Assembly: GCA_040756435.1 (NCBI GenBank)
Contig: JBFLZD010000013.1
Span: 2,249 to 66,248 of the forward strand
From: Spirochaetota bacterium
GTDB taxonomy: Bacteria > Spirochaetota > UBA4802 > UB4802
DNA length: 64,000 nucleotides
Direction of reading: 5' to 3'
The notes beneath the pieces were generated by a model that worked only from the letters and a program-made list of their open reading frames with translations, did not search any database and was not told where the DNA came from. A program made the position numbers and the translations under genes. Shown here piece by piece: positions 23,230 to 52,170 of the stretch (its first letter is position 1; each line of letters begins with the position of its first letter).

Positions 23230-23488
23230 GACATAGGATTGCTTTGCTCGTAATGACTTTTTGGCTAATCCCGTCATTGCGAGGAACGCAGGCGACGAAG
23301 AAATCTGGCTTTTCGTAGCACCGGGATTGCTTCACTTCGACAAGTGGTTGCTGAGCTCGTCGAAGCACTCAGGACAGGCACTTCGTTCGCAATGACATTA
23401 TGGCAACAATGGACCGCCACGGGGCTTACGCCCCTCGCGGTGACGACGTCATACGTCATTGCGAGGCACGCAGTGCCGTGGCAATCTC
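23230..23488. repeat. palindromic repeat cluster A (REP-like family 1): degenerate copy, a 124-bp unit (23273-23396), a GC palindrome (23411-23445) and a 34-bp short unit (23455-23488)
   Basis: Units begin GTCATTGCGAGG...GAAGCAATC and end GATTGCTTC...CTCGCAATGAC, so the termini are inverted repeats, with an internal second inverted repeat. The same family occurs at four other loci in the window. Confidence 0.85.
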
Positions 23489-23523
23489 ATCACCCTTCAC
23501 CCATCACTCATCACCTATCACCC
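23489..23523. repeat. tandem heptamer repeat (ATCACCC/TTCACCC/ATCACTC/ATCACCT/ATCACCC; minus strand reads GGGTGAT x5)
   Basis: Five phased 7-mers immediately 3' of the AAA-ATPase_like gene stop and abutting repeat cluster A. Confidence 0.6.
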
Positions 23524-25062
23524 TTCCCGCTTCCACTCAAATCCAACCAAATCCTTCTGCTCTTTGCTAAACTCTATCCCAATAAGATATATATCTTCAA
23601 ATTTTCCCCTGTATTTTTCTGCATACTTCTTCTCTTCAAGCTGTGCCAATGCTTTACCTTCTGGCTCCAGTTCCACTACCTTAAATTCCAAAATATAACA
23701 TCTTCCCTCATACAGTATCGTTAAATCTATCCTCCCCTTGCTGGTGTAATCTTCGGCCACCATCTCAAAACCTGCACCTGACAAAAAACTATACACCACA
23801 CTTGCATAATACCCTTCATACCCTGCTATCTCATTGCTTCTGTACCACTCATACGGTATGCTTGCAAAAAGCGACTTCAAAACTACTTTAAAAGTTTCAA
23901 CGTTATCTTCTTTTAAACCTTTAATAAGACTTGCTACAAACCTTGTTGCCTCAAACCCCTTCTGCGTTAGATAACTTATACTATAATTATTTAAAGCTAT
24001 CTTCACTTCCTTATTGGGATATGTTAAATAATACAGATATCCGTTAGGAATAGGCTCATATCCTTTAATAGTAAGATACCCCGTCTGGAAAAGCAGATTC
24101 TCTGGCTCTATGGCATCAACATCAAAGCTACCAATAAGATTTTCTGATGCCACCAGTTCTGCTAAGTTTGGCATGTAAAATCTTTTCTGTACCAAAAGCT
24201 TAATTAAAAAATTTGGTGTACCTGTCTCAAACCAATAGGGATGAAATTTTCTTTTTTGTAAATATAACAATATATCAAACGGATTGTAAACACTCTCACC
24301 AAGCCATGCATAGCCATTATACCAGCACTTAATTGCTTCCAAATCTTCGCCCTTTAATTCTTCTACAAATACATTTTCTAACTCCTCTTGTGTGTATCCA
24401 CATAGGGTTGAGTACCTTTCATCAATCGTTATATCATTGAGCTGATTTAACCCTGAAAACAATGAAACCTTTGAAAATTTAGATACTCCCGTTAAAAATA
24501 CAAATTTCAAATACACATCCAGGGGTTTTAGCACGCTATAAAAGTTCTTTAAAACTTCTCGTATACTTGTAGCTTCTTCTTTGTCTTCAATCCTATCTAA
24601 TATTGGTTTATCATACTCGTCTATAAGAACTACTACTTTTTCTTTGTATTTCTCATAGCTTTTCCTTATCATCTCTTCAAAACAAAAATCATATTGGGTC
24701 TTTTTGCTACACACCACATCAAGTTCAGATTGAGCTTGTTCAAGCTTTTCTATTATGTGTTTCTTTAAATGATCTGCGTTCTCAATACTTCTTCCACCAA
24801 AATCTATATATATAACCGGATATTTAACATCCCAGTCCCAATTCTTCTCTAAGTATAGCCCTTTGAATAAATCCCTTTTTCCTAAAAACGCCTGCCGTAA
24901 TGTATCCAGAAACAAGGATTTCCCAAAACGCCTGGGGCGTGATAAAAAGTAATATGTTCCTTCACTGGCAAGCTGTGCCACAAAAGGAGTTTTATCTACA
25001 TAATAATATTCACCGGTTCTTATCTTTTCAAAACTTTGTATTCCTATGGGTAATTTTTTCAC
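23518..25062 (-). CDS. AAA-ATPase_like domain protein with a C-terminal PD-(D/E)xK nuclease-like domain (PDDEXK_9-type)
   Basis: The N-terminus MKKLPIGIQSFEKIRTGEYYYVDKTPFVAQL...FLSRPRRFGKSLFLDTL is the signature start of the AAA-ATPase_like family. Total length 514 aa. Confidence 0.75.
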   Translation of the reverse strand: MKKLPIGIQSFEKIRTGEYYYVDKTPFVAQLASEGTYYFLSRPRRFGKSLFLDTLRQAFLGKRDLFKGLYLEKNWDWDVKYPVIYIDFGGRSIENADHLKKHIIEKLEQAQSELDVVCSKKTQYDFCFEEMIRKSYEKYKEKVVVLIDEYDKPILDRIEDKEEATSIREVLKNFYSVLKPLDVYLKFVFLTGVSKFSKVSLFSGLNQLNDITIDERYSTLCGYTQEELENVFVEELKGEDLEAIKCWYNGYAWLGESVYNPFDILLYLQKRKFHPYWFETGTPNFLIKLLVQKRFYMPNLAELVASENLIGSFDVDAIEPENLLFQTGYLTIKGYEPIPNGYLYYLTYPNKEVKIALNNYSISYLTQKGFEATRFVASLIKGLKEDNVETFKVVLKSLFASIPYEWYRSNEIAGYEGYYASVVYSFLSGAGFEMVAEDYTSKGRIDLTILYEGRCYILEFKVVELEPEGKALAQLEEKKYAEKYRGKFEDIYLIGIEFSKEQKDLVGFEWKREG

Positions 25063-25149
25063 AGGTACTCCTTTTATTTATTAAATCACTGTAACGAATA
25101 ATATATTTTTAAGTCATAGATTTTACAATTAATTTTTTCATTCATTGAT

Positions 25150-25655
25150 TTATAGTAATGCAACCCCGTCATTGCGAGGAGCGCCAGCGACGAAGCAATC
25201 TCGCCTTTCATCATACTGAGATTGCTTCGCTTCGCTCGCAATGACACTACAGCTACACCGTCATTGCGAAGCACGCAATGCCGAAGCAATCTCTCCTTTC
25301 GTGGCACCGGGATTGCTCCACTTCGACAAGTGGTTGCTGAGCTCGTCGAAGCATTCAGTGCAAGCACTTCGTTCGCAATGACATAACGCACTAGCGTCAT
25401 AGCGAGGAACGAAGTGCCGAAGCAATCTGGCCGTTTATTACCTAAAGATTGCGTTGCTCCACTCGTAAAGACACTATGGGAACAAGAGACCGCCACGGGG
25501 CTTTCGCCCCTCGCGGTGACAGCAAATCCGTCATTGCGAGGAGCGATAGCGACGAAGCAATCTCTCCTTTCGTGGCACCGGGATTGCTTCGCTTCGACAA
25601 GTGGTTGCTGAGCTCGTCGAAGCACTCAGTACAAGCGCTATGCTCGCAATCACAT
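25150..25655. repeat. palindromic repeat cluster B (family 1): 78-bp unit (25178-25255), 123-bp unit (25270-25392), composite short unit plus GC palindrome (25406-25530), 114-bp unit (25540-25653)
   Basis: Same termini as cluster A. The ORFs called across it (25086..25625 and others) translate the repeat and are judged spurious. Confidence 0.85.
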
Positions 25656-25917
25656 TATAGCATTCACAAAATTGCTTTGTACCACTCAATTATCCTCTCT
25701 CCTTAAAAAGAAATGTCAACGAAAAATATGGTAAAAATTGAGTACCTGGCTGATTCAAGAATACAGTACAGCACAAAATAAAAAAAATATTTTTCTTTGA
25801 CACTTTCTTTTGTTGCAGCTTAGACTAAAGAACGCTTTAGATACAATAATTAATTTAATTGACGCTTATATGTATCATACTTAGAATAATACATTGAAAA
25901 TTACCAAAAGACAATGA

Positions 25918-28077
25918 TTGCTAACAACTATGCAAACCGTAAAACACCATCATTTTGTTACATTACCCGGAGCACCACTGCCGTTAGGAGTACACTTAGA
26001 CAGGCATGGGGCACGGTTTGCACTTTTCAGCCGCCATGCTACTGCTGTTTCCATACTCCTTTTTGCTTCATCCGAAACTGAGGAATATATTGAAATTGAA
26101 CTTGATCCAAAGCTCAATAAAACCGGCGATATATGGCACATCTGGATTGCAGGAATACGGGAAGGACAGCTATATGGATATAAGGTTGATGGGCCTTACA
26201 ATCCACTGGAAGGCCACCGCTTTAACAAAAACAAGCTCATATTAGACCCTTACGCAAAAGCTATAAGTGGTAACCATATATGGGATTTCAGTAAAGCATG
26301 TGGATATAGTAAGGGACACCCTGATGAAGACCTTTCTTTTTCCACAGACAAGAACTATAAGGAGTCGCCAAAATGCATTGTGGTTGATACAGAATTTGAC
26401 TGGTATGATCGCCCCATTCAGACTCCCATGGAAGATACTATTATTTATGAGCTGCATGTGAAAGGGTTCACCTTCCATCCTTCGTCCCGGGTTACCCATA
26501 GAGGAACATATAAAGGGCTTTCTGAAAAAATCCCCTACCTAAAGCAATTAGGTATAACTGCTGTAGAGCTTATGCCCATTCAGGAATTTGATGAATTTGA
26601 AAATATTAATATTAACCCATTGACCGGTGAGCGGCTAAAAAACTACTGGGGTTACAGCACTATAGCCTTTTTTGCACCCAAATCAACTTATTCTGCAAGT
26701 GGCACCATGGGGCAGCAGATTAATGAATTTAAAGAAATGATCCGTGATTTTCACGAAGCGGGTATTGAAGTGTTTCTTGATGTTGTTTTTAATCATACTG
26801 CCGAAGGTGACCATTTGGGACCAACAATAAATTTTAAAGGCCTGGACAACTCCATTTATTATATGCTGAAAGAAAATAAGCGTTTTTACCAGAACTTTTC
26901 AGGATGCGGTAATACGGTTAACTGTAACCATCCGCTGGTGCGTGACTTCATACTTGATTGCCTGCGCTACTGGGTTGTGGACATGCATGTTGATGGATTC
27001 AGGTTTGACCTGGCATCAATATTAGGGCGCGATCAGGATGGCAATATCTTGCAAAACCCACCGTTGATAGAAAAAATATCTGAAGATCCCATACTGCGTA
27101 ATACAAAGATAATTGCAGAAGCCTGGGATGCAGGCGGAGCATACTTGATTGGCCATTTTCCGGGAAGATGGGCCGAATGGAATGGAAAATTCCGTGATGA
27201 TGTGCGCCGCTTTTGGCGGGGTGATAATGATACTGTTTTCAACTTTATGCAGCGCATTATTGGCAGTCCCGATATCTACCAGCGCACAAACAGAAGCCCA
27301 TTGCATAGTATCAACTTTATCACCTGCCATGACGGATTCACCATGCTTGATTTAGTTTCGTTTAACGAAAAACATAACATAGCCAATGGTGAAAACAATC
27401 AGGATGGCGAAAATAATAACTTAAGTTGCAATTATGGTGTTGAAGGGTTAGATGCCCCACCGGACATTATAAAAATTCGCAGGCAACAGATAAAGAATTT
27501 CTTTACCACGCTGCTGCTATCACAGGGTGTGCCCATGATACTTGCTGGCGATGAGATGGGCCGAACACAACAGGGCAACAACAACGCATACTGCCAGGAC
27601 AATGAGATTTCCTGGGTTAATTGGGACAGATTACAGCAATTTGATGATATCAGACGGTTTGTAGAGCATTTGATTCAATTTCGTAAAATGCATCCGGTAC
27701 TCAGGCAAAAGCGCTTTTTATCAGGTACTATCGAACAAGGGTTTACACATCCTGATTGCGTGTGGCACGGCGTTAACTGCCATAATCCTGACGTAAGTTA
27801 CTACAGTCATTCCATTGCCTTGCATCTTAATGGGGCGTATGCAAATCTTTCATCAGGTCTACCTGACAATGACATATATATCATATACAATGCATCTGAA
27901 TATGATCTTTTGTTTTCATTGCCAAAACCATTTAACGGCAGCCACTGGGTACGCGTGGTTGACACCTCATTGCAATCACCGGATGACATTACGGTACAGG
28001 GTGCACCTCTTCCATCTCAGGAAACAATTTTTAGCAAAAAAAGGTCGGCTATTGTTTTGATTTCGGCCATGTCATGA
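25918..28077 (+). CDS. glgX: glycogen debranching enzyme GlgX (GH13 isoamylase-type)
   Basis: N-terminal CBM48-like LPLGVHLDRHGARFALFSRHATAV and GH13 catalytic regions (GFRFDLASIL, EAWDAGG). The start may be the TTG at 25918 or the ATG at 25930. Confidence 0.8.
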   Translation: MLTTMQTVKHHHFVTLPGAPLPLGVHLDRHGARFALFSRHATAVSILLFASSETEEYIEIELDPKLNKTGDIWHIWIAGIREGQLYGYKVDGPYNPLEGHRFNKNKLILDPYAKAISGNHIWDFSKACGYSKGHPDEDLSFSTDKNYKESPKCIVVDTEFDWYDRPIQTPMEDTIIYELHVKGFTFHPSSRVTHRGTYKGLSEKIPYLKQLGITAVELMPIQEFDEFENININPLTGERLKNYWGYSTIAFFAPKSTYSASGTMGQQINEFKEMIRDFHEAGIEVFLDVVFNHTAEGDHLGPTINFKGLDNSIYYMLKENKRFYQNFSGCGNTVNCNHPLVRDFILDCLRYWVVDMHVDGFRFDLASILGRDQDGNILQNPPLIEKISEDPILRNTKIIAEAWDAGGAYLIGHFPGRWAEWNGKFRDDVRRFWRGDNDTVFNFMQRIIGSPDIYQRTNRSPLHSINFITCHDGFTMLDLVSFNEKHNIANGENNQDGENNNLSCNYGVEGLDAPPDIIKIRRQQIKNFFTTLLLSQGVPMILAGDEMGRTQQGNNNAYCQDNEISWVNWDRLQQFDDIRRFVEHLIQFRKMHPVLRQKRFLSGTIEQGFTHPDCVWHGVNCHNPDVSYYSHSIALHLNGAYANLSSGLPDNDIYIIYNASEYDLLFSLPKPFNGSHWVRVVDTSLQSPDDITVQGAPLPSQETIFSKKRSAIVLISAMS

Positions 28078-28259
28078 CGATAGTATAGTAAAGAGTGTTT
28101 ACCGGTAACTATCGCATATACTATTTTTTAAATATTATTGCATTGCAGGCATTTATTGTGTATTTTAATATAAAGGGGCGATAGTAACCGGAAATATGAC
28201 TTTTGGTAGAGAAGACAGGATAAAAATAGTGCCATATGCAGGATAACAGTGTATAACGC

Positions 28260-29930
28260 ATGATACCATTACTCATTACATCGCTGATTATTGTCATCGT
28301 CATATTGCTGTGGGCAATAACAGGCAATGACACAAAGCCTGACACAACACAGCCGGCTCCACCTGAAAAAATGTACCGCCGTCGTGCAAGCGATTTAGAA
28401 ATAGAAGAACAATACCCCGATGCAAGCAAGCCAAAACGAAGAGCAACAGATATCCCTCTGGAAAAAACCTTCATTGATGAAGATTTCAAATTGCCGTATT
28501 CAGCTGAAGAGATAATTCCGCCTTACTCACGCTTTAGAATATACATGCGGATATTAATGAATGCTGAAGTGTATGCCAAAAAGGGCGATTTTACCACTGC
28601 TATTTCGTTATACGAAGGAGTAAACGAACGAATCCTTGATGCAGAAACTAACACAAAAATAGAAGCTAATATTGATTACCTCAAAAAATACAAACAAAAA
28701 CAGGAGATACAACAACGGCAAAAAGAAGCTGAAACCAGAAGCAAGCCAAATGAAATAAAAATTTCACTGGATAGCCCAATAAAGTTGCCCGATAAAATTC
28801 AGATTGGATTTACCCCTCAAAACTTTGATGTTGATAAAATTGTAGACGAAATAACCCGAAAAATTCAGGAAAAACAGAAGTTAGAAAATCTTGAAGATGA
28901 ACGCATCAATACATACAGGGATGAAATCAGCAAATTAACTTCTCACCTTGAGGAGCTTAAGAAAGAAGTAGCCAGTTCATTGAAAGGCATCTCTGATAAA
29001 GAAGAATCATCTGAAATTCAGAAGTTGCAAAGTCAATTGAATGACCTCACCGACAGGATGTTCAAGCTATACGAAGAAAAAGAGAAAACACGGGCTGAAC
29101 TGGAAAATTTAAAAGCAGTTCATTCCAAACTTTTAGAAGGGGGCAAAGAGCCTTCGGTTTCTACTGTTAAATATGAAGGAAAATTACCCATTCAACTTGA
29201 TCCTGAACCTATATTAAAAATATTAGAAAAACTACCTGAAATTACAGCGCCAAAACCCAAACCGGTTGACAAGGACAAGATTACGGGTGATCTTGCAAAA
29301 GATATCCTTAAAAAATTATATGGCAACAGGGACAAACCGGATGAAACAAAGCAGACATCTGAAATAGTTGAAAAAACAGAAAGGCAAAAAGAGGAAGAGG
29401 ACTGGGAACTTATCAGTGATATTGTAAAAGATGAGAAAAAAAGTGAATTGGATGAAGTCAGTGATGAGGATATATTCCAGAAGATACTGGAAGAAGATAA
29501 ACGTAAAAAACAGGACGAAATTGAAATATTAGGCGATTACAAAAAATCCGAAGAAGTTGAATATGATACTGATGACCCGGAAACACGACGTAAACTGGAA
29601 GAAGACCGTAAATTCTACGAAAAATTTTTACAGCACGACAGGCGCAAGAAAAAAGAACTGCCCATATTAAAAGTAACCTATGACTTTAAGAAGCTTCCTG
29701 ATGAATTTAGCCTATCCAGGGAAAAGAATATCCTGGAATATGCATTTTACAAATACCGCCCACTTTTACAGAAAGCCGATGACCTTATAAAGAAGCGAAA
29801 AGTACGCGATGCCCTCAATTACTACAGGGTAGTCATGCAACAGAATATACCTCCTGAATTCAAGACCATGATACGAAAAAATATCAATGACCTGAATGAG
29901 TATTTAGAGAAATATCTTACCTCAGATTAA
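28260..29930 (+). CDS. hypothetical membrane-anchored coiled-coil protein (K/E-rich, 556 aa)
   Basis: N-terminal TM helix, a long low-complexity K/E coiled-coil region and a C-terminal helical (TPR-like) region. No family was recognised. Confidence 0.5.
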   Translation: MIPLLITSLIIVIVILLWAITGNDTKPDTTQPAPPEKMYRRRASDLEIEEQYPDASKPKRRATDIPLEKTFIDEDFKLPYSAEEIIPPYSRFRIYMRILMNAEVYAKKGDFTTAISLYEGVNERILDAETNTKIEANIDYLKKYKQKQEIQQRQKEAETRSKPNEIKISLDSPIKLPDKIQIGFTPQNFDVDKIVDEITRKIQEKQKLENLEDERINTYRDEISKLTSHLEELKKEVASSLKGISDKEESSEIQKLQSQLNDLTDRMFKLYEEKEKTRAELENLKAVHSKLLEGGKEPSVSTVKYEGKLPIQLDPEPILKILEKLPEITAPKPKPVDKDKITGDLAKDILKKLYGNRDKPDETKQTSEIVEKTERQKEEEDWELISDIVKDEKKSELDEVSDEDIFQKILEEDKRKKQDEIEILGDYKKSEEVEYDTDDPETRRKLEEDRKFYEKFLQHDRRKKKELPILKVTYDFKKLPDEFSLSREKNILEYAFYKYRPLLQKADDLIKKRKVRDALNYYRVVMQQNIPPEFKTMIRKNINDLNEYLEKYLTSD

Positions 29931-30100
29931 ATGATTAATGGCGTAAATGGACGTATAAAATCTTCGTATGGCCATCCATTATCATTCGTATCGTAATGTG
30001 CCTGAGTGCAAATTCATTTTTTGGGTATTATAAACTTTTCTTTTTTTTATTGACTTTCTACATGTATTATATGTATTTTTATTATGTAAAGGTTATTGCA

Positions 30101-30448: not shown

Positions 30449-30521
30449 CATTCTCCACCTTAAAAATTCTTGATATTATAATCCATAATACCGATTTTTA
30501 ATATATAGCAATTGCTGAAAA

Positions 30522-30640
30522 CTTATGGGCACCTTTCAAAACTGCTTTCTTCTGATTATTCATATATTTAGAAAGCAGTTTTATCCTATAGACTGTGCCC
30601 ACAAGGGAACATCCTAAAAAACAGTTTTTTGAAGTTCCCT
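30522..30640. repeat. palindromic element family 2, intact copy (nested inverted repeats GGGCAC..AAAACTGCTTTCT..AGAAAGCAGTTTT..GTGCCC, then GGGAAC..AAAAAACAGTTTTTT..GTTCCC)
   Basis: 13-bp perfect inner inverted repeat with 6-bp outer arms, and a second adjacent 6-bp/7-bp nested palindrome. A diverged inverted copy lies at 50690-50813. Confidence 0.7.
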
Positions 30641-35949: not shown

Positions 35950-36232
35950 GTGGGCTCGCAGTGACGTGAGTGCAATGTCATTGCGAGCATAGTGCTTGCA
36001 CTGAGTGCTTCGACGAGCTCAGCAACCACTTGTCGAAGTGAAGCAATCTTTATGATTGAAGGCGAGATTGCCACGGCACTGCGTGCCTCGCAATGACGGA
36101 TTTGCTGTCACCGCGAGGGGCGTAAGCCCCGTGGCGGTCTCTTGTTCCCATAGTGTCTTTACGAGTGGATCAACGCAATCTTTAGGTAATAAACGGCGAG
36201 ATTGCTTCAGCACTTCGTTCCTCGCAATGACA
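35950..36232. repeat. palindromic repeat cluster C (family 1, inverted relative to A/B): 121-bp unit (35977-36097), GC palindrome, degenerate short unit (36198-36231)
   Basis: Positions 36064-36231 are the reverse complement of the cluster B composite (25406-25550) at roughly 95% identity. Confidence 0.85.
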
Positions 36233-36282
36233 CGGTTGCAAAGTAATTGCAATGAGGTGTCTTTTGGGATACCCTCAGAAAG

Positions 36283-40280: not shown

Positions 40281-40670
40281 ATGATAATCAGGGATATTTC
40301 ATATAAACTTAATGTTATTTTTAAACACAATAATGTTGTGTTTGCATATCTATTTGGTTCAATAGCCAAAAATGAAATATCGCCATCAAGTGATATTGAT
40401 ATTGCTGTGTATTTAAAAAATAGTAATTCTGAGAAGCTATTTAATACACTGCTTTCAATCCATCTTGATACCTGCAGAGCTTTGAAAACAAATAACGTTG
40501 ACATTGTCATCCTTAATACAAATTACAACCTAATGCTAATAGATGAAATAATACGAAATGGGATACTACTTTATGATGCCGATCCCCAATTTCGTGAAGA
40601 ATTTGAATGTAAAATGATTCATTCAGCAATTGATTTCAAAACCCAACGTTATTTCACAATTAAAGTATAA
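40281..40670 (+). CDS. mntA: minimal nucleotidyltransferase (MNT) antitoxin, MntA-like
   Basis: GS...DID motif (AYLFGSIAKNEISPSSDIDIAVYL), 129 aa, immediately upstream of the HEPN gene. Confidence 0.75.
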   Translation: MIIRDISYKLNVIFKHNNVVFAYLFGSIAKNEISPSSDIDIAVYLKNSNSEKLFNTLLSIHLDTCRALKTNNVDIVILNTNYNLMLIDEIIRNGILLYDADPQFREEFECKMIHSAIDFKTQRYFTIKV

Positions 40671-41092
40671 TGGAAAGAATAGTATACAAAATTGGCAAAA
40701 TTAGGGAATATCTATCAATTGTATATTCTATAAAAGACGATTGTCATAATCGTTTTACTATCGATCCTATTTACAGGGGAGCAATGCTCCATTACCTCTA
40801 TCTTTTATCAGACTCTTGTATAACTTTAGCAGAGCTTGTGATTAAATATAAAAAATTACGAATTCCTCAAACATATTATGAAGCTATAGACATACTTGGG
40901 GAAAACAATATCATAAATCCTGTATTTGCGTATTCTTTTGCCAAAATTGCAGGTTTTAGAAATTATTTAGCCCATGATTATGAACAGATAAGTCCAATTA
41001 TAATCTGCAATGAAATTTTAAACAAACTTCAAGATATTGAAAACTATCTGTCACAAATTGAAAAATCGTTAGGCATTGATTTCTATAACTAA
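40670..41092 (+). CDS. hepT: HEPN-domain toxin, HepT-like (DUF86)
   Basis: Rx4-6HxY motif RNYLAHDY, 140 aa. Its start codon overlaps the MNT stop (TAATG). Confidence 0.75.
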   Translation: MERIVYKIGKIREYLSIVYSIKDDCHNRFTIDPIYRGAMLHYLYLLSDSCITLAELVIKYKKLRIPQTYYEAIDILGENNIINPVFAYSFAKIAGFRNYLAHDYEQISPIIICNEILNKLQDIENYLSQIEKSLGIDFYN

Positions 41093-45629: not shown

Positions 45630-45695
45630 AAAAATTTCTTGACGGTGAATCAAATTTGAATAGTGTGCCTTTTATCAATACAGTTAGGGTGTTTT

Positions 45696-46331
45696 ATGGA
45701 TAACTATCTCAAAGTATCAACATTTAAACGCTTACTGTTTAATGTAAAAACTCGCTTATACTGGGAACTATCGTATAAGAAAAAGTTTGCCTCCATTGCA
45801 GGTAATCCCATTGTATGGGGTTTATGGAATATTGATGTGTATGGGCCAAATATTCATTTGGGCAAAAACGTGGTGTTTTTAGCTGCAAACGGCAGTAAAA
45901 CTGCATTAACAACAGTGCGACTTGCGGGTCATGAAGGGCGTATTGATATAGGCAATAATGTGCTTGTTATGAATGGGGTGCGCATTAGCAGCGCATCCCA
46001 TATCATCATTGGCGATGACTGTATGTTAGCTAACTTTTGCTACCTTACTGATGCTGATTGGCATGATATCCATGATCGCACTAACCCTGTTGGCAAGACT
46101 GCACCTATTATCCTTGAAAAAGGTGTATGGATTGGCGATTCAGCTATTATCTGCAAGGGCGTGCATATTGGTGAAAATTCAGTTGTGGGAGCTGGTGCCG
46201 TGGTAACCAAAGATGTACCTCCCAATGTGGTTGTTGCAGGCAATCCTGCACGAATTGTAAAGGAAATTGATCCTGATAGGGTTGTAACTCATAGCAGCCT
46301 TTATCATAAGGTGGGAGCGCCTCGTCTATGA
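45696..46331 (+). CDS. hexapeptide-repeat (LbH) O-acetyltransferase, WbbJ/maltose-acetyltransferase-like
   Basis: Left-handed beta-helix hexapeptide repeats (IGNNVLVMNGVRISSA...IGDSAIICKGVHIGENSVVGAGAVV). Its stop overlaps the GT4 gene start (ATGA). Confidence 0.75.
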   Translation: MDNYLKVSTFKRLLFNVKTRLYWELSYKKKFASIAGNPIVWGLWNIDVYGPNIHLGKNVVFLAANGSKTALTTVRLAGHEGRIDIGNNVLVMNGVRISSASHIIIGDDCMLANFCYLTDADWHDIHDRTNPVGKTAPIILEKGVWIGDSAIICKGVHIGENSVVGAGAVVTKDVPPNVVVAGNPARIVKEIDPDRVVTHSSLYHKVGAPRL

Positions 46332-47563
46332 GGATATGCCTTTTGTGTTACCGTGCCAACCCTTTTTGCGGTGGTCAGGGTATATATCTTAAATATGTTG
46401 CCGAAGCCTTAGCACGGCAGGGCCATGAGGTACACGCCATCGTTGGCCCTCCTTATCCCCACCATATGAAAAATGTCACCCTTCATTATATTGAAAACAA
46501 TCAATATTATATTAAAAAAGGCTTTGAATTCATTACGCATGACAGGCCGTTTGATATTTTTCATCCCGTTAATGCGTATGAATATATTCACTCACGGTTG
46601 GGTGCTTTTCCTGAAATAAGCGGTTTCAGTTATCGCGCATTTTTTATGATGCGAAAGCTCCATGAAAAGCTCCATTTTGATATCATCCATGATAATCAGT
46701 GTATTGGCTATGGGTTGCTTTTCATGAAAGCCTTAGGTATTCCCGTTATGGCCACTATCCACCATCCATTAACTATTGATTTAGAAAATGTGCTGGAACG
46801 TGCTTCATCATTTAAAAACAGAATCAAAGGAGTAATGTTTTACCCCATCCTCATGCAGCAAATTGTATCAAAACGATTGGACCATATAATCACTGTCTCA
46901 GAAGATTCTAAACATAGAATAACAAAAGATTTTGGTGTTCCACCACACAAACAGTCAGTAGTATATAATGGCCTTGACACTTCCATTTTCAGGAAGCTGC
47001 CATATATAAAGAAAAAAAACAATAAGCTCTTATTTGTGGGTAACGTTGAAGATGGCAAGAAAGGTTTTGTGTATCTTTTAAAGGCTCTGACCCTCATCAA
47101 ATCTAACGCTACTCTTACTGTTATTGATGGCGGCGCTCCACATCGCCACATCACCCATAAGCTTGTTGATACATTGGGCGTGCGTAACAAAGTAGAATTT
47201 GTTGGCGCCGCATCAACTGATGAATTGGTACATCATTATAATGAAGCCGCTATTGCCATTGTTCCTTCAGTATATGAAGGATTTGGCTTCCCCGCAGCTG
47301 AAGCCATGGCATGCGGCACGCCGGTAATTGCCAGCGATGGTGGTGCACTGCGTGAGGTGGTTGGTGATGCAGGCATTGTTGTCCCTTCACGGGATGAGGT
47401 TGCATTAGCTGATGCTATCGATAATTTGTTACAGAGCAAAAAGCTATTACAGGAACTATCGCATAAAGGGATTGAACGTGTACAAACTCACTTTAACTGG
47501 GACAATGCTGCTTTACAGATGGCAGCTATTTATAAAAAGGTTATTGCCAGTTACTATCGGTAA
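46328..47563 (+). CDS. glycosyltransferase family 4 (GT-B, retaining)
   Basis: C-terminal EX7E region EGFGFPAAEAMACGTPVIAS and GT4 architecture, 411 aa. Confidence 0.85.
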   Translation: MRICLLCYRANPFCGGQGIYLKYVAEALARQGHEVHAIVGPPYPHHMKNVTLHYIENNQYYIKKGFEFITHDRPFDIFHPVNAYEYIHSRLGAFPEISGFSYRAFFMMRKLHEKLHFDIIHDNQCIGYGLLFMKALGIPVMATIHHPLTIDLENVLERASSFKNRIKGVMFYPILMQQIVSKRLDHIITVSEDSKHRITKDFGVPPHKQSVVYNGLDTSIFRKLPYIKKKNNKLLFVGNVEDGKKGFVYLLKALTLIKSNATLTVIDGGAPHRHITHKLVDTLGVRNKVEFVGAASTDELVHHYNEAAIAIVPSVYEGFGFPAAEAMACGTPVIASDGGALREVVGDAGIVVPSRDEVALADAIDNLLQSKKLLQELSHKGIERVQTHFNWDNAALQMAAIYKKVIASYYR

Positions 47564-48345
47564 TCTGTTATTTTTGTATTTTTTGGAAGCTTCAGCTCAG
47601 CTACAGTATCAGGCACAGCTTCGTTTATCAAATACTGCTGCATGGTTACCTCAAACGTTGTTTTGCCATTAACATCAACAAACCGTAATGCCTTACAGGT
47701 AAAAATGTTATTGTCTATCTTTGGTTTAAAAAAATATATCTCGTAGCGGGCATTGTTCCCTTTTTGTACAAATAAAATTTTACCTGGCACATTGTCTTTC
47801 ATGGATATGGTCTGATGCATTGTATCATTTTCCAGTAATATAAATTGCTCGTTACCATCCTCAATAGCCTTTACACTATAATAATTTTTCAAAAGCGGTA
47901 TCTTGCCAATCAACAAATTGTCTATTAGTTCAACATCAATATTCAATGGAAGAAAAGAATATACAGGGAATTTATTATAGTCAAATACTAATAGATTGTT
48001 TGCAATGGGCTGATAAATATACAGTGTATCGTTGTCACGCACCACCACACTGAGCTGCGATCCAAACACCGAATCCACAATTGACATCCGTGCCTTCCTT
48101 GCATCCACATTATACTGTAACTTTACCGAGGATTTAAAACCTTCTTTTGCAATATTCTCTATTCGCATCGATGCAGTTACTGTATGAGGCAATGTTGCAT
48201 TTAATTTTATTATTTCTTCCAGGAGCGGTGTTGGGCTTGTTTCCTTTTTTTCGGTTTCTTTTACTGGTGCAGAAGTACAGCTATAAAAAAAAGCCAGCGT
48301 TAGTATTACAGCAATGCGCAGCATGTTTTTACTTATTCCAATCAT
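47554..48345 (-). CDS. hypothetical lipoprotein
   Basis: Start moved to the internal ATG (MIGISKNMLRIAVILTLAFFYSC, lipobox FYSC) to avoid overlapping the upstream TPR gene. Beta-rich body (LolA-like or DUF) not confidently assigned. Confidence 0.45.
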   Translation of the reverse strand: MIGISKNMLRIAVILTLAFFYSCTSAPVKETEKKETSPTPLLEEIIKLNATLPHTVTASMRIENIAKEGFKSSVKLQYNVDARKARMSIVDSVFGSQLSVVVRDNDTLYIYQPIANNLLVFDYNKFPVYSFLPLNIDVELIDNLLIGKIPLLKNYYSVKAIEDGNEQFILLENDTMHQTISMKDNVPGKILFVQKGNNARYEIYFFKPKIDNNIFTCKALRFVDVNGKTTFEVTMQQYLINEAVPDTVAELKLPKNTKITDYR

Positions 48346-48352
48346 AATACAA

Positions 48353-50209
48353 TTACTTCCCCTTTTGAGTATTAATCTTTTTTTGCACTTCAGGTTTTGG
48401 GTCAAGTTTGTAAGCTTTGTTCCAGTACTCCAGAGCTTTATCCGGTAATTGCAGGGCATTATAAGCATCACCAATGTGTTCATACACAACAGCATCAGGA
48501 TACCCTTCAAGTTCTAATTCTTGTGCTGCTTCTAATAGCAAAGGCAATGCATCATGATATTTTCCCATTTTATAATATACCCACCCTAATGAATCTAAAT
48601 ATGCTCCATTTGTGGGTTCACTTTCTAGTGCCATGTTTATAAGAGTCAACGATTCATCTAAATGAATGTTGTTATCAGCATATAAATATCCTAAATAATT
48701 ACATATTCTGGCGCTCTTTTGTTCATTGTTACAGGCTTCCTGTAATATAGCGATAGTATCCTGCACCCGTTTCTGCTTATCAAGAGTGGATGCCAGGTAA
48801 AAATAATAGGTTTCCAACTTTTTTTTATCAATTGCTTTTCGGAGCATATCTTCTGCATCAGCATAATTATTTTTTTGCAGATATACCAAACCTTTAAAAA
48901 AATACGTATCGGGATTTTCTTTATCCTGATATTGTGCAGCATTCATGTATTCAAAAGCCTTTGTATAATCTTTCAAAAGGGCGTATAGATAGCCAATTCT
49001 TAGCAAAACCTCATTGTCTTTTTTCATAGAATAGGCAATAGTATAGTAATAGATGGCTCTGCTCAGTTGATTGGTATCTTCATATAGTTGTCCCAAATAC
49101 AGATATGCTTCATGTATGGATGGGTCATTAGCCAAAGCCATAGTGAACATTATTGTTGCAGCATCATAATCTTTTTTTTGATACAGCATAACACCTGCGG
49201 TGTAAAAGTTTGCTGCAGCAGTAGCAGCATCATTTTTTCTCATTGCAATCCTGGCCAGTGCAATATATGGCATATCAAGGGACGCGTTCATCCTATTCAT
49301 CTTTAGTGCCAACTCCCGGGCTGCATCATCATTGTGCAACAGTTCATTATACATCATCCGTGCAAGCTGCCCTTCCGAGCTTCTGTGATTAATAGCTTTT
49401 CGTAATACAGGCAAGGCTTTCATATCTTCATAGATATAGTATATTCTGCCTGCATGCAATATTGCTTTCAAGTCGTTAGGATATCGTTCAAGATATTGCA
49501 TGATATAGCTTATTGCCTGTTTTATATCACCTTTTTCCAGATTCAAAAGTCCCAATATATATAACATGGAATAATTTTCCGGATTTTCGTTGTACGCTTT
49601 TAAAAAATAGTGATACGCTTTTTTAAATTCGCCAAAACTATAATATATGTGCCCTAAATAATAATACGATTGTTCTTTATAGTAGGATTCAATTGATTCA
49701 AATTCACTCTGTTCTATAACTTTTAAAAAATGATGCCGCGCTTTACCATTCTGTTTTAACTGCGAATAATAGACAGTTGCTACATTAAAACGCACCCGGT
49801 ATAATTCAGGTCTTTTTTGCAACAACTTTTCCAGTACCAGAACACCCTCGTCAACCTGGTTCAGGTTCATATATACAGAATATTGCAACACATACGGCTT
49901 ATCCCAGTTTTCATTTACTGCAATTGATTTATTGGCATAATCTATCGCTTTAGCATAATCATACTGATAATAATAACATTCTGCAATCTGATAGTAAATG
50001 GCATCTAACTGGTTACCTTCTTTGCTTGCCTCTTCAAGGAGTTTAATTGCCTCAGGATAATTCTTTTTATTTTTTAATAGTAATGCCTTGCTGTACAATT
50101 CAAACGATGTTTCTTTATATGCAGGCCTGGCATTAGTTTCAGTCTTTGTATCTGGTAAAGAACTGCATGACAGTGTAATAATCATCAAAAGCAGCAAGAA
50201 TTTTTTCAT
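48353..50209 (-). CDS. tetratricopeptide-repeat lipoprotein (618 aa)
   Basis: Lipoprotein signal MKKFLLLLMIITLSCSS followed by more than 12 TPR-like repeats. Confidence 0.75.
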   Translation of the reverse strand: MKKFLLLLMIITLSCSSLPDTKTETNARPAYKETSFELYSKALLLKNKKNYPEAIKLLEEASKEGNQLDAIYYQIAECYYYQYDYAKAIDYANKSIAVNENWDKPYVLQYSVYMNLNQVDEGVLVLEKLLQKRPELYRVRFNVATVYYSQLKQNGKARHHFLKVIEQSEFESIESYYKEQSYYYLGHIYYSFGEFKKAYHYFLKAYNENPENYSMLYILGLLNLEKGDIKQAISYIMQYLERYPNDLKAILHAGRIYYIYEDMKALPVLRKAINHRSSEGQLARMMYNELLHNDDAARELALKMNRMNASLDMPYIALARIAMRKNDAATAAANFYTAGVMLYQKKDYDAATIMFTMALANDPSIHEAYLYLGQLYEDTNQLSRAIYYYTIAYSMKKDNEVLLRIGYLYALLKDYTKAFEYMNAAQYQDKENPDTYFFKGLVYLQKNNYADAEDMLRKAIDKKKLETYYFYLASTLDKQKRVQDTIAILQEACNNEQKSARICNYLGYLYADNNIHLDESLTLINMALESEPTNGAYLDSLGWVYYKMGKYHDALPLLLEAAQELELEGYPDAVVYEHIGDAYNALQLPDKALEYWNKAYKLDPKPEVQKKINTQKGK

Positions 50210-50365
50210 GGCGATAGTTCCTTTAAATCATCTGTGGTATTGTTTTAACAAAACTTTCCCGGTACAAAATGGATGGCATATACCTTCCAAATAAGACTAC
50301 TATACGTATAGTACAATAGTGAGAGTGTCCCAAAAGACACCTCATTGCAACTACTATGCACCCTC

Positions 50366-50625
50366 GTCATTGCGAGTGCCGCAGGCACGTGGCAATCTCA
50401 TCTTCTGCAGCATGGTGATTGCTTCACTTCGACAAGCTCAGTGCAAGCACTTCGTTTGCAATGACACATCAGCCTATCCCGTCATTGCGAATGCCGCAGG
50501 CACGTGGCAATCTCATCTTCTGCAGCATGGTGATTGCTTCACTTCGACAAGCTCAGTGCAAGCACTTCGTTTGCAATGACATTGCACTCACGTCATTGCA
50601 AGCCCCACGGTTTGTTTTAAGACGG
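50366..50625. repeat. palindromic repeat cluster D (family 1): two near-identical tandem 100-bp units (50366-50465, 50481-50580) plus a partial unit
   Basis: GTCATTGCGA(G/A)TGCCGCAGGCACGTGGCAATCTC...GATTGCTTCACTTCGACAAGCTCAGTGCAAGCACTTCGTTTGCAATGAC, repeated twice. Confidence 0.85.
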
Positions 50626-50689
50626 CCCCGATGTATTACAATATATACTTTTTACAGTAACTGTCAAATATAAAACATTGCAACTATAA

Positions 50690-50813
50690 GAGAACTTCTA
50701 AAAATTGTCTTTTTTTGAATGTTCCTTTGTGGACATAATTTATAGGATTAAACTGATTTCTATTATATAAATATAATTTCGGATGAAACCAGTTTTTTAA
50801 AGGTGCCCATAAG
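50690..50813. repeat. palindromic element family 2, diverged inverted copy
   Basis: The reverse complement aligns along about 120 bp with 30522-30640 (CTTATGGGCACCTTT(C/A)AAAAACTG...CCTATA...CCACAA(A/G)GGAACAT...GAAGTTC). Confidence 0.6.
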
Positions 50814-50975
50814 AATGCAACAATTTTGTAACAAAACGAAAAGGATTGATACAAAAATACTTTGCAAATGCACATAAATTTTGTATATTATACACTGCAT
50901 GTGTGTACTTAATAGTACTGGTTCATGAAAGTAAGGAATATACAGGTACATTAAAAATTTTTCAGGAGGTAACAA

Positions 50976-51674
50976 ATGCTTTTTGGGATTGACCCTTTAT
51001 ACTGGATGATGATGGCTCCCGTTCTTTTAATTTCACTATGGGCTTCGTTCAGAGTGAAAAGTGCTTTTAACAAATATTCCCAAATTCCATCACGATCCGG
51101 GCATACCGGAGCTGATGTGGCACGTATAATCTTGCAGCAAAATGGTTTATCACATATCCCGGTTGAAGAAACCACCGGTTTTTTATCCGACCATTATGAC
51201 CCCATTAAGAAAGTAGTCAGGCTTTCACCTGAAGTATATAATAGCAATTCACTTGCTGCAATTGGTGTGGCAGCCCACGAAACAGGCCACGCTATACAGC
51301 ATGCTAAACTGTACAAACCGCTTGTGTTGCGCAATGCTATAGCACCAACCGCATCCATTGGTTCAAATCTTTCATGGATAATCATCTTTGCTGGTTTTGT
51401 CATTGGCTCATTAGGGCTTGTTAAATTGGGAATTTTACTTTTCAGCCTGGTAGTATTCTTTCAGCTGATTACACTCCCTGTAGAATTTAACGCTTCATCA
51501 CGTGCCAAGGAAATACTGCAAGGGTATGGCATCGTAAGTTCAGGTGAGCTTGTAGGTGTAAGCAAAGTACTATCAGCTGCCGCAATGACGTATGTGGCTG
51601 CTGCAGCATCAGCTATAATGACACTGTTGTATTTTCTCATCAGGGCAGGGCTTTTGGGTGGTAGAGATGAATAG
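50976..51674 (+). CDS. putative neutral zinc metallopeptidase (Zn_peptidase_2 / YugP-like membrane protein)
   Basis: HExxH motif AAHETGHAIQH flanked by transmembrane segments; 232 aa; GGAGG ribosome-binding site. Confidence 0.7.
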   Translation: MLFGIDPLYWMMMAPVLLISLWASFRVKSAFNKYSQIPSRSGHTGADVARIILQQNGLSHIPVEETTGFLSDHYDPIKKVVRLSPEVYNSNSLAAIGVAAHETGHAIQHAKLYKPLVLRNAIAPTASIGSNLSWIIIFAGFVIGSLGLVKLGILLFSLVVFFQLITLPVEFNASSRAKEILQGYGIVSSGELVGVSKVLSAAAMTYVAAAASAIMTLLYFLIRAGLLGGRDE

Positions 51675-51685
51675 AAGAGTCAGGA

Positions 51686-51715
51686 TGGGGGGTGTCCAAA
51701 AGGCACCCCCTTTTG
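51686..51715 (+). terminator. rho-independent terminator after the zinc-peptidase gene
   Basis: GGGGGGTGTCC-aaaa-GGCACCCCC followed by TTTTG. Confidence 0.6.
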
Positions 51716-51719
51716 CAAT

Positions 51720-52170
51720 GACTTTTGCCCTCCTGTCATTGCCAGGAACGAAGTGACGAAGCAATCTTGTCTTCTGCTGTATTGAGATTGCTTCACCCCG
51801 ACTTCGTCAGGGTTCGCAATGACCTTCATACTTCATCATTGCGAGGAACGAAGTGATGAAGTAATCCCTCTTTTCATCGTTATAGGATTGCCCCCCTCGA
51901 CAAGCTCAGAACAAGCCTTACGTTCCCCACGACTTTTGCCCTCCTGTCATTGCCAGGAACGAAGTGACGAAGCAATCTTGTCTTCTGCTGTATTGAGATT
52001 GCTTCACCCCGACTTCGTCAGGGTTCGCAATGACCTTCATACTTCGTCATTGCGAGGAGCAAAGCAACGAAGCAATCTCTCCTTCCGTGTCACTGAGATT
52101 GCCTTCCTTCGACAAGCGGTTACTAAGCTTGTCGAAGCACTCAGGACAAGGGCTGCACTTGCAATGATAA
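51720..52170. repeat. palindromic repeat cluster E (family 1 variants): 89-bp units at 51735-51823 and 51946-52034 inside a roughly 211-bp tandem duplication, a degenerate unit (51834-51933), and a 123-bp unit (52045-52167)
   Basis: GTCATTGCCAGGAACGAAGTGACGAAGCAATC...GAGATTGCTTCACCCCGACTTCGTCAGGGTTCGCAATGAC is duplicated with its flanks. The ORF 51819..52193 is repeat-derived. Confidence 0.85.

Follow-up and report, generated by a model that had tools for sequence, protein, structure and literature searches.

Intergenic palindrome arrays in a Spirochaetota genome as probable gene-less relatives of the Ssn repeat/nuclease system

Imperfect palindromes are heaped in five clusters within a 64,000-nucleotide stretch of a Spirochaetota genome (the window), which raises the question of the repeat family to which they belong and of the enzyme that might act on them. 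We consider it probable, at about three chances in four, that these clusters are arrays of gene-less Ssn-related motifs (SRMs), the motifs associated with the Ssn family of tiny single-strand-specific GIY-YIG nucleases (Chenal 2025, PMC11893778). Judged from their sequence, the repeats appear to be a new class within this recently recognised repeat/nuclease system, and the proper reference frame for the arrays is the Ssn/SRM system together with the 'CGTC-tagged REP' superfamily (PMC3733652).

Layout of the five arrays

The terminal sequence GTCATTGCGAG had 24 matches in the window at up to one mismatch, compared to 0.75 ± 0.80 in shuffles, none of which contained 24. All matches fell within 23247-23465, 25168-25653, 35955-36231, 50366-50602 and 51735-52056 (clusters A to E; Table 1), in agreement with a previous sequence-only reading of this DNA that had described a repeat family in five intergenic clusters. 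A looser parse yielded approximately 13 head-to-head dimers, three variant half-modules, one single module and 3-4 remnants, consistent with the 'at least 15 units' of that reading, and the inverted repeats that it reported, terminal as well as inner (GAAGCAATC/GATTGCTTC), were both present. The neighbours of the five intergenic clusters are ordinary housekeeping genes; clusters A, C, and E are located downstream of genes, while two clusters lie within divergent promoter regions. A conserved promoter-like site was observed at 50667-50640 on the minus strand, and given that cluster D is placed between this site and a TPR gene, its transcription is probable.

The basic unit of the arrays is a half-module of 26-75 nt. 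Half-modules join head-to-head to form palindromes of 77-124 bp, heaped in mosaic arrays, and the pairing is mostly between a 32-nt L form and an inverted shorter S form or longer form. Fresh tandem copies had been recognised in clusters D and E; the period of 211 bp in cluster E stands (89% identity), but that in cluster D is 115 bp (1.9 copies, 99% identity) rather than 100 bp. Similarly, clusters B and C do share a composite in inverted orientation (25396-25656 versus 36231-35975), but it extends over ∼265 bp instead of 145 bp, with a mean column identity of 93% across a 274-column alignment where ∼95% had been given.

We rejected a CRISPR array, as the sequence-only reading also had: the dimers that make up these arrays are palindromic, occur in both orientations, and are separated by junctions of 10-25 nt. 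An integron attC array was rejected based on the termini (GTCATTGCGAG / CTCGCAATGAC) and the lack of ORFs between units. ORFs predicted across the arrays are artefacts, as had been stated; the same module-derived peptides (SLRG.., RHCE..SNL, VIAR.., RFARND) recur in other bacteria, where they spuriously extend unrelated predicted proteins at the N- or C-terminus. Many GIY-YIG cluster representatives are likewise predicted proteins with module-translated extensions.

Table 1. Repeat units of clusters A to E in window coordinates; dimers have no single strand (.).
Feature	Positions	Strand	Basis or remarks
Remnant short half-module (GGATTGCTTTGCTCGTAATGAC), cluster A	23236..23257	-	Sequence; head match at 23247-23257
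Dimer A1: L-type half-module (23273-23305, +), 19-20 nt loop, long half-module (~23326-23396, -)	23273..23396	.	Inner arm of long half-module expanded; ssDNA fold z -2.15
Variant half-module GTCACCGCGAGGGGCGTAAGCCCCGTGGCGGTC, outer stem ACCGC/GCGGT ('GC palindrome' of the earlier reading)	23412..23444	-	Sequence, parse
Single L-type half-module GTCATTGCGAGGCACGCAGTGCCGTGGCAATC	23455..23486	+	Inner stem wholly Watson-Crick; ssDNA fold ....(((((..(((((...)))))...)))))....
Dimer B1 (78 bp): L-type (25168-25200, +), 19-nt loop, S-type (25220-25245, -)	25168..25245	.	Canonical L/S heterodimer; ssDNA fold -25.4 kcal/mol, z -5.9
Dimer B2 (123 bp): L-type (+) / long half-module (-)	25260..25382	.	Fold z -3.47
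Dimer B3 (77 bp): L-type (+) / degenerate S-type (GTCTTTACGAGTGGAGCAACGCAATC, -)	25396..25472	.	Parse, alignment; start of B/C composite
Variant (ACCGC) half-module, cluster B	25488..25520	-	Parse
Dimer B4 (124 bp): L-type (+) / long half-module (-)	25530..25653	.	Parse, B/C alignment
Remnant head GTCACTGCGAG, edge of cluster C	35955..35965	-	Head match
Dimer C1 (121 bp): long half-module (+) / L-type (36066-36097, -)	35977..36097	.	Inverted copy of B4
Variant (ACCGC) half-module, cluster C	36107..36139	+	Sequence, parse
Dimer C2 (77 bp): degenerate S-type (+) / L-type (36200-36231, -)	36155..36231	.	Inverted copy of B3
Dimer D1 (100 bp): L-type (+) / 49-nt half-module (-)	50366..50465	.	Sequence, parse
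Dimer D2: tandem copy of D1, 99% identical, period 115 bp	50481..50580	.	Tandem-repeat analysis
Remnant head GTCATTGCAAG, edge of cluster D	50592..50602	+	Head match
Dimer E1 (89 bp): L-type (+) / 38-nt half-module (-)	51735..51823	.	Fold z -3.5
Dimer E2: L-type (ATCATTGCGAG.., +), right arm degenerate	51835..51936	.	Sequence, parse
Dimer E3: copy of E1 inside 211-bp tandem duplication (89% identity)	51946..52034	.	Tandem-repeat analysis
Dimer E4 (123 bp): L-type (+) / 72-nt half-module (-)	52046..52168	.	Fold z -4.26

Anatomy and folding of the half-module

The half-module has a (C/T)GTC tag at its 5' end, a 5-bp outer stem (ATTGC/GCAAT) followed by a GA-rich internal loop (GA / G-N-R), an inner stem of 2-6 bp, a GNA or GNRA-type terminal loop (GNRA-like in some copies), and a near-invariant C directly 3' of the palindrome. 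The inner stem is composed of G-C pairs with tandem G·A mismatches or is wholly Watson-Crick, and when expanded can reach tens of nucleotides. Among 46 distinct L-type modules, C3 was invariant and G1, T2, and C32 were at least 90% conserved, and a pyrimidine (C or T) preceded GTC in 234 of 245 modules. The separate 'GC palindrome' of the sequence-only reading did not hold up as an element of its own: GTCACCGCGAGGGGCGWAAGCCCCGTGGCGGTC is a half-module variant with compensatory changes in the outer stem, from ATTGC/GCAAT to ACCGC/GCGGT.

The half-module hairpin covaries, with 27 double-change cells as opposed to 5.1 ± 1.7 in shuffles (0 of 500 reached 27), and 81.5% of cells were paired, versus 21-58% when the 3' partner was slid by 1-3 columns. 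Other copies have C-G, G-C or U-A pairs at the tandem G·A positions of the inner stem. Nearest-neighbour folding failed to return the consensus hairpin of the half-module (z +0.48), and we base this fold on covariation and on the known stability of G·A and GNA elements. A GNA triloop together with tandem G·A is a hallmark of stable DNA hairpins, as in d(GCGNAGC) mini-hairpins. The long-hairpin folding previously claimed for whole units was recovered for most of them as single-stranded DNA, with z of -3.5 to -5.9 in four of six and of -2.15 and -1.36 in the other two.

Distribution in other bacteria and association with GIY-YIG genes

Genomes that contain the module span at least 14 bacterial phyla and range from 36% to 72% GC. 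An inverted head was located at most 200 nt away in 93 of 132 module matches, while ∼2% would be expected by chance, and exactly two heads were present in 65 of 120 loci, consistent with one head-to-head dimer each. The arrays vary between strains: orthologous sites in related Spirochaetota either had no arrays or had another repeat family.

We searched for GTCATTGCGA at up to one mismatch within 300 nt of the gene in 80 metagenome loci retrieved via GIY-YIG alignment. Inward-facing matches were present in 21 of these loci, and on both sides in 15, given a chance expectation of ∼0.01 per flank; L209, L220, and L206 are clean examples of an L-module, ORF, and S-module in succession. In an Oscillospiraceae locus (L021), one module dimer encloses a 98-aa GIY-YIG ORF, and the adjoining gene-less dimer has a loop resembling the 5' leader of the gene copy. 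The published SRM pattern was matched in 17 further loci with the same GIY-YIG protein clade, which ties the module-flanked clade to the published Ssn system. As a search sequence (HGTCWYN(0-2)YYVSBRHN(0-5)WNVSBRGN(0-2)RNCYNB), this pattern matched the NTS positive control; it had 0 matches in the window and was likewise absent from the L, S, and window consensus sequences. The module-flanked proteins are single-domain proteins of ∼96 aa that match PF01541 and have invariant Y7, Y18, and E66, spaced like Y6, Y17, and E64, the residues that were mutated in SsnA; their genes are probably true Ssn (cd10448) members. An HMM search of the window, of ∼6 kb past its end, and of the loci retrieved from related strains found no Ssn-like ORF. 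A cognate Ssn is presumably encoded elsewhere in the same genome; given the absence of such an ORF from the searched sequence, the arrays could also be relics.

Because an L...S pair elsewhere brackets a ∼96-aa GIY-YIG gene, the window units look like the two ends of an SRM-ssn-SRM element minus the gene. At hot spots between genes, mosaics would then have built up from such gene-less ends through further duplication, inversion, and shuffling. When DNA becomes single-stranded, in replication, in repair or as incoming DNA, one strand per module would fold, and the cognate Ssn nuclease would bind the folded module and nick the single strand a few nucleotides away from the GTC tag, on its 5' side, which would modulate recombination around the arrays and possibly drive motif spread. 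Recognition of a single-stranded DNA hairpin by a cognate Ssn nuclease is a likely mechanism by analogy with the NTS of Neisseria meningitidis, for which mutagenesis showed that the three bases upstream of the palindrome control cleavage and the C just 3' of it controls binding (PMC11893778). From the same analogy, we infer cleavage of the window modules and its biological consequence.

Alternative explanations and known systems

The best-surviving alternative, although improbable, is that the units are strict MITEs, non-autonomous transposons that arose as internally deleted copies of an SRM-ssn-SRM element and that Ssn actively spreads to new sites, with selfish propagation prevailing over host recombination control. 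The gene-less L...S heterodimer does correspond to the ends of gene-carrying elements, the gene-less loop in L021 recalls the leader of a gene copy, fresh duplicates are 99% identical, arrays are strain-specific, assemblies break at modules (L121 and L226 end there, and most GIY-YIG matches are on contigs under 1 kb), and the NTS-ssnA-NTS architecture is IS-like, as its authors remark (PMC11893778). However, no target-site duplications, which the sequence-only reading had suggested seeking, were found at unit boundaries. Given that the related-strain comparison yielded no precise pair of empty and filled sites, mobility is deduced from presence and absence only. Moreover, strand transfer has not been demonstrated for a nicking nuclease on its own, and the duplications are local (tandem or inverted segmental), for which recombination or replication slippage could suffice. 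Support is likewise lacking for a MITE derived from a DDE insertion sequence, as neither target-site duplications nor a DDE partner were found.

Classical REP/BIME sequences carry a GTAG tag, and their RAYT (TnpA-REP) is a Y1 HUH transposase. That the units are REP/REPIN/BIME sequences mobilised in trans by such an enzyme acting on single-stranded hairpins is more doubtful still, even though they are small palindromes in inverted doublets that form long hairpins, lie in mosaic intergenic clusters, and differ in copy content between strains; a RAYT could also sit elsewhere, as the window covers only a portion of the genome. Against this, the tag is (C/T)GTC and not GTAG or GTGG, 20 window ORFs scanned against Pfam for Y1 included no RAYT (nor was an ssn or other transposase gene seen in the window), no neighbour gene family recurred among the 120 loci, the gene inside dimers elsewhere is GIY-YIG, and CGTC-type REPs have no transposase association (Di Nocera et al., PMC3733652). 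The label 'REP/BIME- or MITE-like' given by the sequence-only reading thus describes the units well, as palindromic, intergenic, clustered, mosaic, strain-variable, and freshly duplicated, but the RAYT or MITE family that it implies is unsupported.

Least credible is a structured RNA acting when transcribed, as bidirectional terminators, mRNA 3'-end stabilisers or sRNAs: the hairpins are very stable, some loops are GNRA-like, and clusters A, C, and E follow genes while D is probably transcribed, but there was no Rfam match even at E <= 1, both orientations occur, two clusters are in divergent promoter regions, no T-tracts follow the hairpins, GNA triloops with tandem G·A are typical of stable DNA hairpins, and SsnA binds ssDNA but not RNA (PMC11893778).

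Arrays of gene-less SRMs, the reading we prefer, have traits in common with several known systems. Integron attC sites are also imperfect palindromes, with a variable terminal loop and bulged bases, that are recognised when folded from a single strand, but RYYYAAC/GTTRRRY core sites, cassettes, and integrase are missing here and orientations are mixed. REP/REPIN/BIME sequences share the ∼30-nt modules, the inverted doublets forming long hairpins, and the mosaic clusters, and with RAYT also the probable recognition at the ssDNA level and an enzyme gene that is present once and bordered by its own repeats. Their tag is GTAG/GTGG instead of YGTC, their enzyme is a Y1 HUH transposase, and REP families are normally lineage-specific, whereas the window module is near-identical across phyla.

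CGTC-tagged REPs are closer (Di Nocera 2013, PMC3733652). Their terminal tag is likewise CGTC/TGTC, the stem starts with A-T (positions 1-2), and the 3' tail is short and in many copies CCA-like; head-to-head dimers prevail, heterodimers are common, and the distribution covers several phyla including Spirochaetes, without transposase association. CGTC-1 to -4 differ in having uninterrupted 8-9 bp stems with 4-5 nt loops, compared to 5 bp, an internal loop, and a 2-6 bp inner stem here, and in peptide footprints (VIPAKAGI and VIPGLDPGIH versus VIARSEATKQS and RHCEERSDEAI). Another difference is that clusters of CGTC-tagged REPs were reported to be rare outside Neisseria and Wolbachia.

Unlike the NTS, with its continuous ATTCCCGCG..GCGGGAAT stem, the window class has an ATTGC..GCAAT palindrome interrupted by a GA-rich internal loop, beyond which lies a covarying, length-variable inner stem; the window has no ssn gene. 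With SRM/Ssn, it shares an HGTC tag directly 5' of a hairpin palindrome that begins with AT and is followed by AAT-C-Y-N, directionality of the motif, a cross-phylum distribution, inverted motifs flanking a single-domain GIY-YIG gene of ∼94-98 aa, and gene-less copies that outnumber gene copies and cluster around genes.

The repeat arrays and the fold of their module

The repeat arrays are a real, well-delimited feature of the window. The motif GTCATTGCGAG (≤1 mismatch) has 24 matches in the 64 kb, compared with 0.75 ± 0.80 in 100 dinucleotide-preserving shuffles of the window, none of which reached 24, and all 24 lie inside the five stretches delimited by the sequence-only reading. All five clusters are intergenic, as that reading had also claimed; their neighbours are ordinary housekeeping genes (mannonate dehydratase / AAA-ATPase / isoamylase; thiolase / isopropylmalate dehydratase large subunit; TPR protein / Zn-peptidase / methyl-accepting chemotaxis protein; window proteins in the accession series MEW65261xx). 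The fresh tandem duplications proposed for clusters D and E were recovered, with a period of 211 bp in E (89% identity) but of 115 bp in D (1.9 copies, 99% identity), not 100 bp. Similarly, the inverted composite common to clusters B and C is real but spans ∼265 bp instead of 145 bp (93% mean column identity over a 274-column alignment), while the "GC palindrome" taken for a separate element is a variant of the same module. Rfam returned no family for the repeats (gathering thresholds for the whole window, E ≤ 1 for cluster B), a tRNA scan found none, and literature text queried with the repeat DNA strings gave chance or primer matches only. The arrays also give rise to false ORFs and false protein extensions, and annotation would benefit if they were recognised.

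In a relaxed parse of the clusters, each unit resolves into two half-modules joined head to head, which start with GTCATTGCGA(G), end with (G)AAGCAATC, and have a variable insert in between. Two forms dominated the 245 half-modules collected from the window and from 120 other genomes among the matches listed: a 32-nt L form (GTCATTGCGA-GGAGCGNAGCGACGAA-GCAATC) and a 26-nt S form (GTCATTGCGA-GCGNAGCGAA-GCAATC). Longer inserts form a tail up to ∼80 nt, which includes the 38-, 49-, and 72-nt right arms of the window. The half-module consists of a YGTC tag, an outer stem ATTGC/GCAAT, an internal loop GA / G-N-R, an inner stem of 5 bp capped by a G-N-A loop with any base in the middle, and a C. The inner stem of the consensus has tandem G·A/A·G mismatches, and these positions become Watson-Crick pairs in other copies, including GGCAC-GCA-GTGCC and GTGCC-GCA-GGCAC in the window. 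Across 46 distinct L modules, we counted 27 double-change cells versus 5.1 ± 1.7 in shuffles (0/500 reached 27), and 81.5% of cells were paired, versus 21–58% when the 3' partner was slid by 1–3 columns. The outer stem covaries too (ATTCC/GGAAT, ATCGC/GCGAT and, in the window's "GC palindrome" variant, ACCGC/GCGGT). The long hairpins anticipated for the dimers were predicted for single-stranded DNA in four of six cases (z -3.5 to -5.9), with weaker values in the other two (z -2.15 and -1.36). The ssDNA fold predicted for the window's Watson-Crick L module is exactly the one proposed; nearest-neighbour energies give no hairpin for the consensus G·A module (z +0.48), a limitation that we accept because covariation bears the argument.

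Distribution across bacteria and a candidate GIY-YIG partner gene

Scanning one genome per species with GTCATTGCGAGGAGCG yielded at least 120 stretches. Hosts among the matches listed were Alpha-, Beta-, Gamma-, and Deltaproteobacteria, Chloroflexota, Bacillota (Oscillospiraceae), Bacteroidota, Patescibacteria, Omnitrophota, Armatimonadota, Planctomycetota, Verrucomicrobiota, Nitrospirota, Hydrogenedentota, and Spirochaetota, so that the module occurs in at least 14 phyla, at loci with a GC content of 36% to 72%. A collection of this size would be expected to contain a few hundred chance matches to the bare 16-mer. The matches are not chance: among those listed, GCAATC (≤1 mismatch) follows in 128 of 132, and an inverted head lies within 200 nt in 93 of 132, compared with ∼2% by chance.

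All-versus-all BLAST of ORFs of at least 100 aa across the 120 loci among the matches listed revealed no recurrent neighbour gene (the top family was present in 10 loci), because the gene sought is far rarer than the repeats and shorter than 100 aa. When the same loci were searched for GIY-YIG proteins by tblastn and HMM, the sole match was an Oscillospiraceae locus (L021), in which two facing modules 470 bp apart enclose a 98-aa ORF with the N-terminus MKKYYVYILTNK..LYTGVTSDL... Adjacent to this gene copy is a gene-less dimer with a loop similar to the gene copy's leader. The family matches PF01541 and has at least 8,000 candidates in a 90%-identity database, mostly on contigs <1 kb, and 11,921 clusters at 50% identity (E ≤ 1e-3). 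Many predicted members have N- or C-terminal extensions that are translated flanking module (VIAR.., SLRG..DEAIS, RHCEVRSNL, RFARND, EIAT..ASQ). NCBIfam gave no family for the protein, viral contigs scanned with it gave nothing, and the only PDB match was a weak one to UPF0213 BH0048 (E 0.007), which does not make the protein clearly YhbQ-like.

We then turned to 80 metagenome loci fetched with an alignment of diverse GIY-YIG members. In 21 of these, GTCATTGCGA (≤1 mismatch) lies within 300 nt of the gene in inward orientation, on both sides in 15, given a chance expectation of ∼0.01 per flank; the ATTGCGAG...GCAAT class is thus common among environmental loci of the Ssn type (small ssDNA-specific GIY-YIG nucleases). 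Three loci (L209, L220, L206) follow a compact plan of L module, ∼30 nt, ORF, stop codon, and S module, and their L/S heterodimer is that of the gene-less units. Counting modules of any class (GTC-A-stem...stem'-C), 65 of the 80 loci carry one, with outer stems ATTCC (24), ATTGC (14), ATCCT (11), and others. By tblastn and HMM, no Ssn-like ORF was found in the window, the adjacent 6 kb, or related-strain loci; therefore, an Ssn encoded elsewhere in the genome could serve the arrays in trans, or the arrays may be relics.

Strain turnover and possible roles of the arrays

Orthologous spacers were compared with those of related Spirochaetota MAGs and metagenome contigs whose proteins share at least 90% identity with those of the window. 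The thiolase-leuC spacer measures 477 bp in the window, where it contains cluster C. In some strains it is 225 bp long and has nothing but a terminator-like hairpin, and in others it is 705 bp long and filled with a different GC-rich repeat family. In relatives, the TPR-peptidase spacer is 352 bp without cluster D, and the glgX-uxuA spacer, which in the window holds an accessory AAA-ATPase/PD-(D/E)XK gene and clusters A and B, is empty or contains an unrelated gene. No related-strain locus (∼215 kb in all) had more than one module head. The arrays mark strain-variable intergenic hot spots. Neither a clean empty/filled site pair nor a target-site duplication was found in the orthologous spacers of related strains, because these are too diverged or contain Ns.

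Several further features were observed at these spacers and elsewhere in the window (table). The gene between clusters A and B (AAA-ATPase_like + PDDEXK_9), whose protein cluster has 2 members only and in place of which relatives have an empty spacer or an Ala_racemase_N-domain gene, appears to be an accessory insertion, specific to this strain, at a repeat hot spot. The GC-rich family (e.g., GTGCCTCGATGCACACGCTTCGCGTGCACTCGG..., tandem GGCGTATCGAGA.GTGGTCATCGAGTAGCCTTCAA) was seen in related Spirochaetota (L126:5198-5902, L138:4200-4886) at the same intergenic hot spots as the window's arrays. A short hairpin, GTGTCCCAAAAGACAC (GGGGTGTCCAAAAGGCACCCC at cluster E), then (C)TCATTGCAA, bounds clusters C, D, and E, and CACGGTTTGTTTTAAG(G/A)CG is the opposite boundary common to C and D; therefore, whole arrays may share end sequences. 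Short-read contigs from the same or related samples stop at modules or arrays (L121, ∼41 nt past the thiolase stop; L226:4959), and these repeats systematically break metagenome assemblies.

Features of the window with their positions and strand
Feature	Position	Strand	Remark
Paralogous gene 1	4220-4773		PBP_like_2, phosphate-binding-type
Paralogous gene 2	5278-5831		adjacent to gene 1; 72-76% DNA identity, offset 1058 bp
Cluster A	23230-23488
CATCACC microsatellite	23488-23526		7-nt unit, ∼5 copies; adjoins cluster A at 3' end of AAA-ATPase gene
AAA-ATPase_like + PDDEXK_9 gene	23518-25062	-	bracketed by clusters A and B
Cluster B	25150-25655
L/S heterodimer	25168-25245		example of gene-less unit
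Cluster C	35950-36232
Boundary hairpin	36258-36276		cluster C
Nucleotidyltransferase (NTP_transf_2/Polbeta) + HepT-like pair	40281-41092	+	MNT/HepT-type toxin-antitoxin module; annotation from matching contigs L126, L128
TPR gene	start 50209
Boundary hairpin	50327-50345		cluster D
Cluster D	50366-50625
Promoter-like site	50640-50667	-	strong; TTGACA-16-TATATT (11/12)
Boundary hairpin	51690-51712		cluster E
Cluster E	51720-52170
Fluoride riboswitch RF01734	56060-56120	+	53.6 bits; just upstream of 407-aa ORF
407-aa ORF	56170-57393		annotated Na_H_Exchanger-family protein on matching contig L225

Judged from sequence, the window clusters are arrays of gene-less dimers of Ssn-related motifs (SRMs) of the ATTGCGAG...GCAAT class. 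In the most likely mechanism, the module would fold when the DNA is single-stranded and a cognate Ssn nuclease would recognise, and presumably cleave, the folded module, with recombination near the arrays and possibly the repeats' own spread as consequences. A strict MITE copied by Ssn is compatible with these data, but the related-strain spacers compared gave no junction evidence for it. Dimers of this class might be mobile elements of a non-autonomous kind that the small GIY-YIG Ssn nuclease of an SRM-ssn-SRM parent copies, a proposition that seems to us tentative and rather unlikely. If true, they would represent a kind of prokaryotic transposable or homing element not characterised before, built on an ssDNA-specific GIY-YIG nuclease, and horizontal spread would explain a ∼32-nt motif near-identical in Bradyrhizobium, Patescibacteria, Oscillospiraceae, and Spirochaetota.

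RNA-level roles of the arrays may exist as side effects. The position of cluster D, with a conserved promoter-like site on one side and its gene on the other, speaks for such a role, but the repeats have no Rfam family, orientation bias, or T-tract, and their loop and mismatch design, a G-N-A loop with tandem G·A mismatches, is characteristic of stable DNA hairpins. The -35 region of this promoter-like site is conserved in related strains, and, seen from the TPR gene, the site is on the upstream side of cluster D; therefore, cluster D would sit in the 5' UTR of that gene. The sequence-only reading of REP/BIME- or MITE-like mobile palindromes described the behaviour of the repeats well but not the family it implied, given the tag and the identity of the partner gene. 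Classical REP/BIME elements driven by RAYT are disfavoured, since the tag is wrong, no RAYT was present among the 20 window ORFs scanned, and the partner gene is GIY-YIG. CRISPR, attC, and DDE-MITE readings of the clusters were ruled out on anatomy.

Comparison with CGTC-tagged REPs and the Ssn/SRM system

The "CGTC-tagged REP" superfamily was described in 2013, with no transposase partner or dedicated enzyme reported (Di Nocera, PMC3733652). The studied class shares its tag, its tail, and a stem that starts with A-T, and in both, head-to-head dimers and heterodimers predominate. In contrast, the stems of the four families of that superfamily are 8-9 bp long and uninterrupted, and their peptide footprints differ (PMC3733652); none of the CGTC-1 to -4 footprints in the Di Nocera supplements equals the studied class, which is therefore not one of the four. 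For the studied CGTC-tagged class, these data tie such "orphan" repeats, previously without an enzyme, to the GIY-YIG gene as a candidate partner.

The closest counterpart is the system of Neisseria meningitidis described in 2025, in which SsnA, a 94-aa single-domain GIY-YIG protein (CDD cd10448), binds its repeat NTS (CGTCATTCCCGCGMAVGCGGGAATCYRG) as ssDNA only, cuts a few nucleotides upstream, and is inactive on dsDNA, RNA, and the opposite strand (Chenal 2025, PMC11893778). Three bases 5' of the NTS palindrome govern cleavage and the C just 3' governs binding, and in Neisseria the system restricts the integration of transforming ssDNA (PMC11893778). SRMs were reported near 71% of homologues, on both sides in 42%, and the authors pointed out the IS-like NTS-ssnA-NTS layout and the analogy to RAYT/REP (PMC11893778). 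Our modules have the same frame of YGTC, AT-starting palindrome, and AAT-C, conserved at the same critical positions, and the flanked GIY-YIG proteins have an invariant Tyr, Tyr, and Glu spaced like the residues that were mutated in SsnA. However, the published degenerate SRM pattern does not match the module and has 0 matches in the window, while it matches the NTS positive control; therefore, pattern-based surveys would miss copies of this class. Among the 80 metagenome loci, the published pattern matches 17 and the studied class is present in 21, indicating that one protein clade uses several motif classes. Bridging motifs such as GTCATTCCGAGCGAAGCGAGGAATC occur in metagenome GIY-YIG loci (L166, L204, L222, P0231); their outer stem is NTS-like (ATTCC/GGAAT), and their core is the GA / GCGNAGC of the studied class. 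A continuum between published SRMs and the studied class is suggested by these sequences. The window arrays themselves are ordinary for Ssn/SRM-type systems, and represent a new sequence class of the system, widespread and missed by the published search pattern. Ssn nucleases are the first endonucleases that are site-specific and act on ssDNA only, and every Ssn/SRM pair may offer a new specificity for use as a tool.
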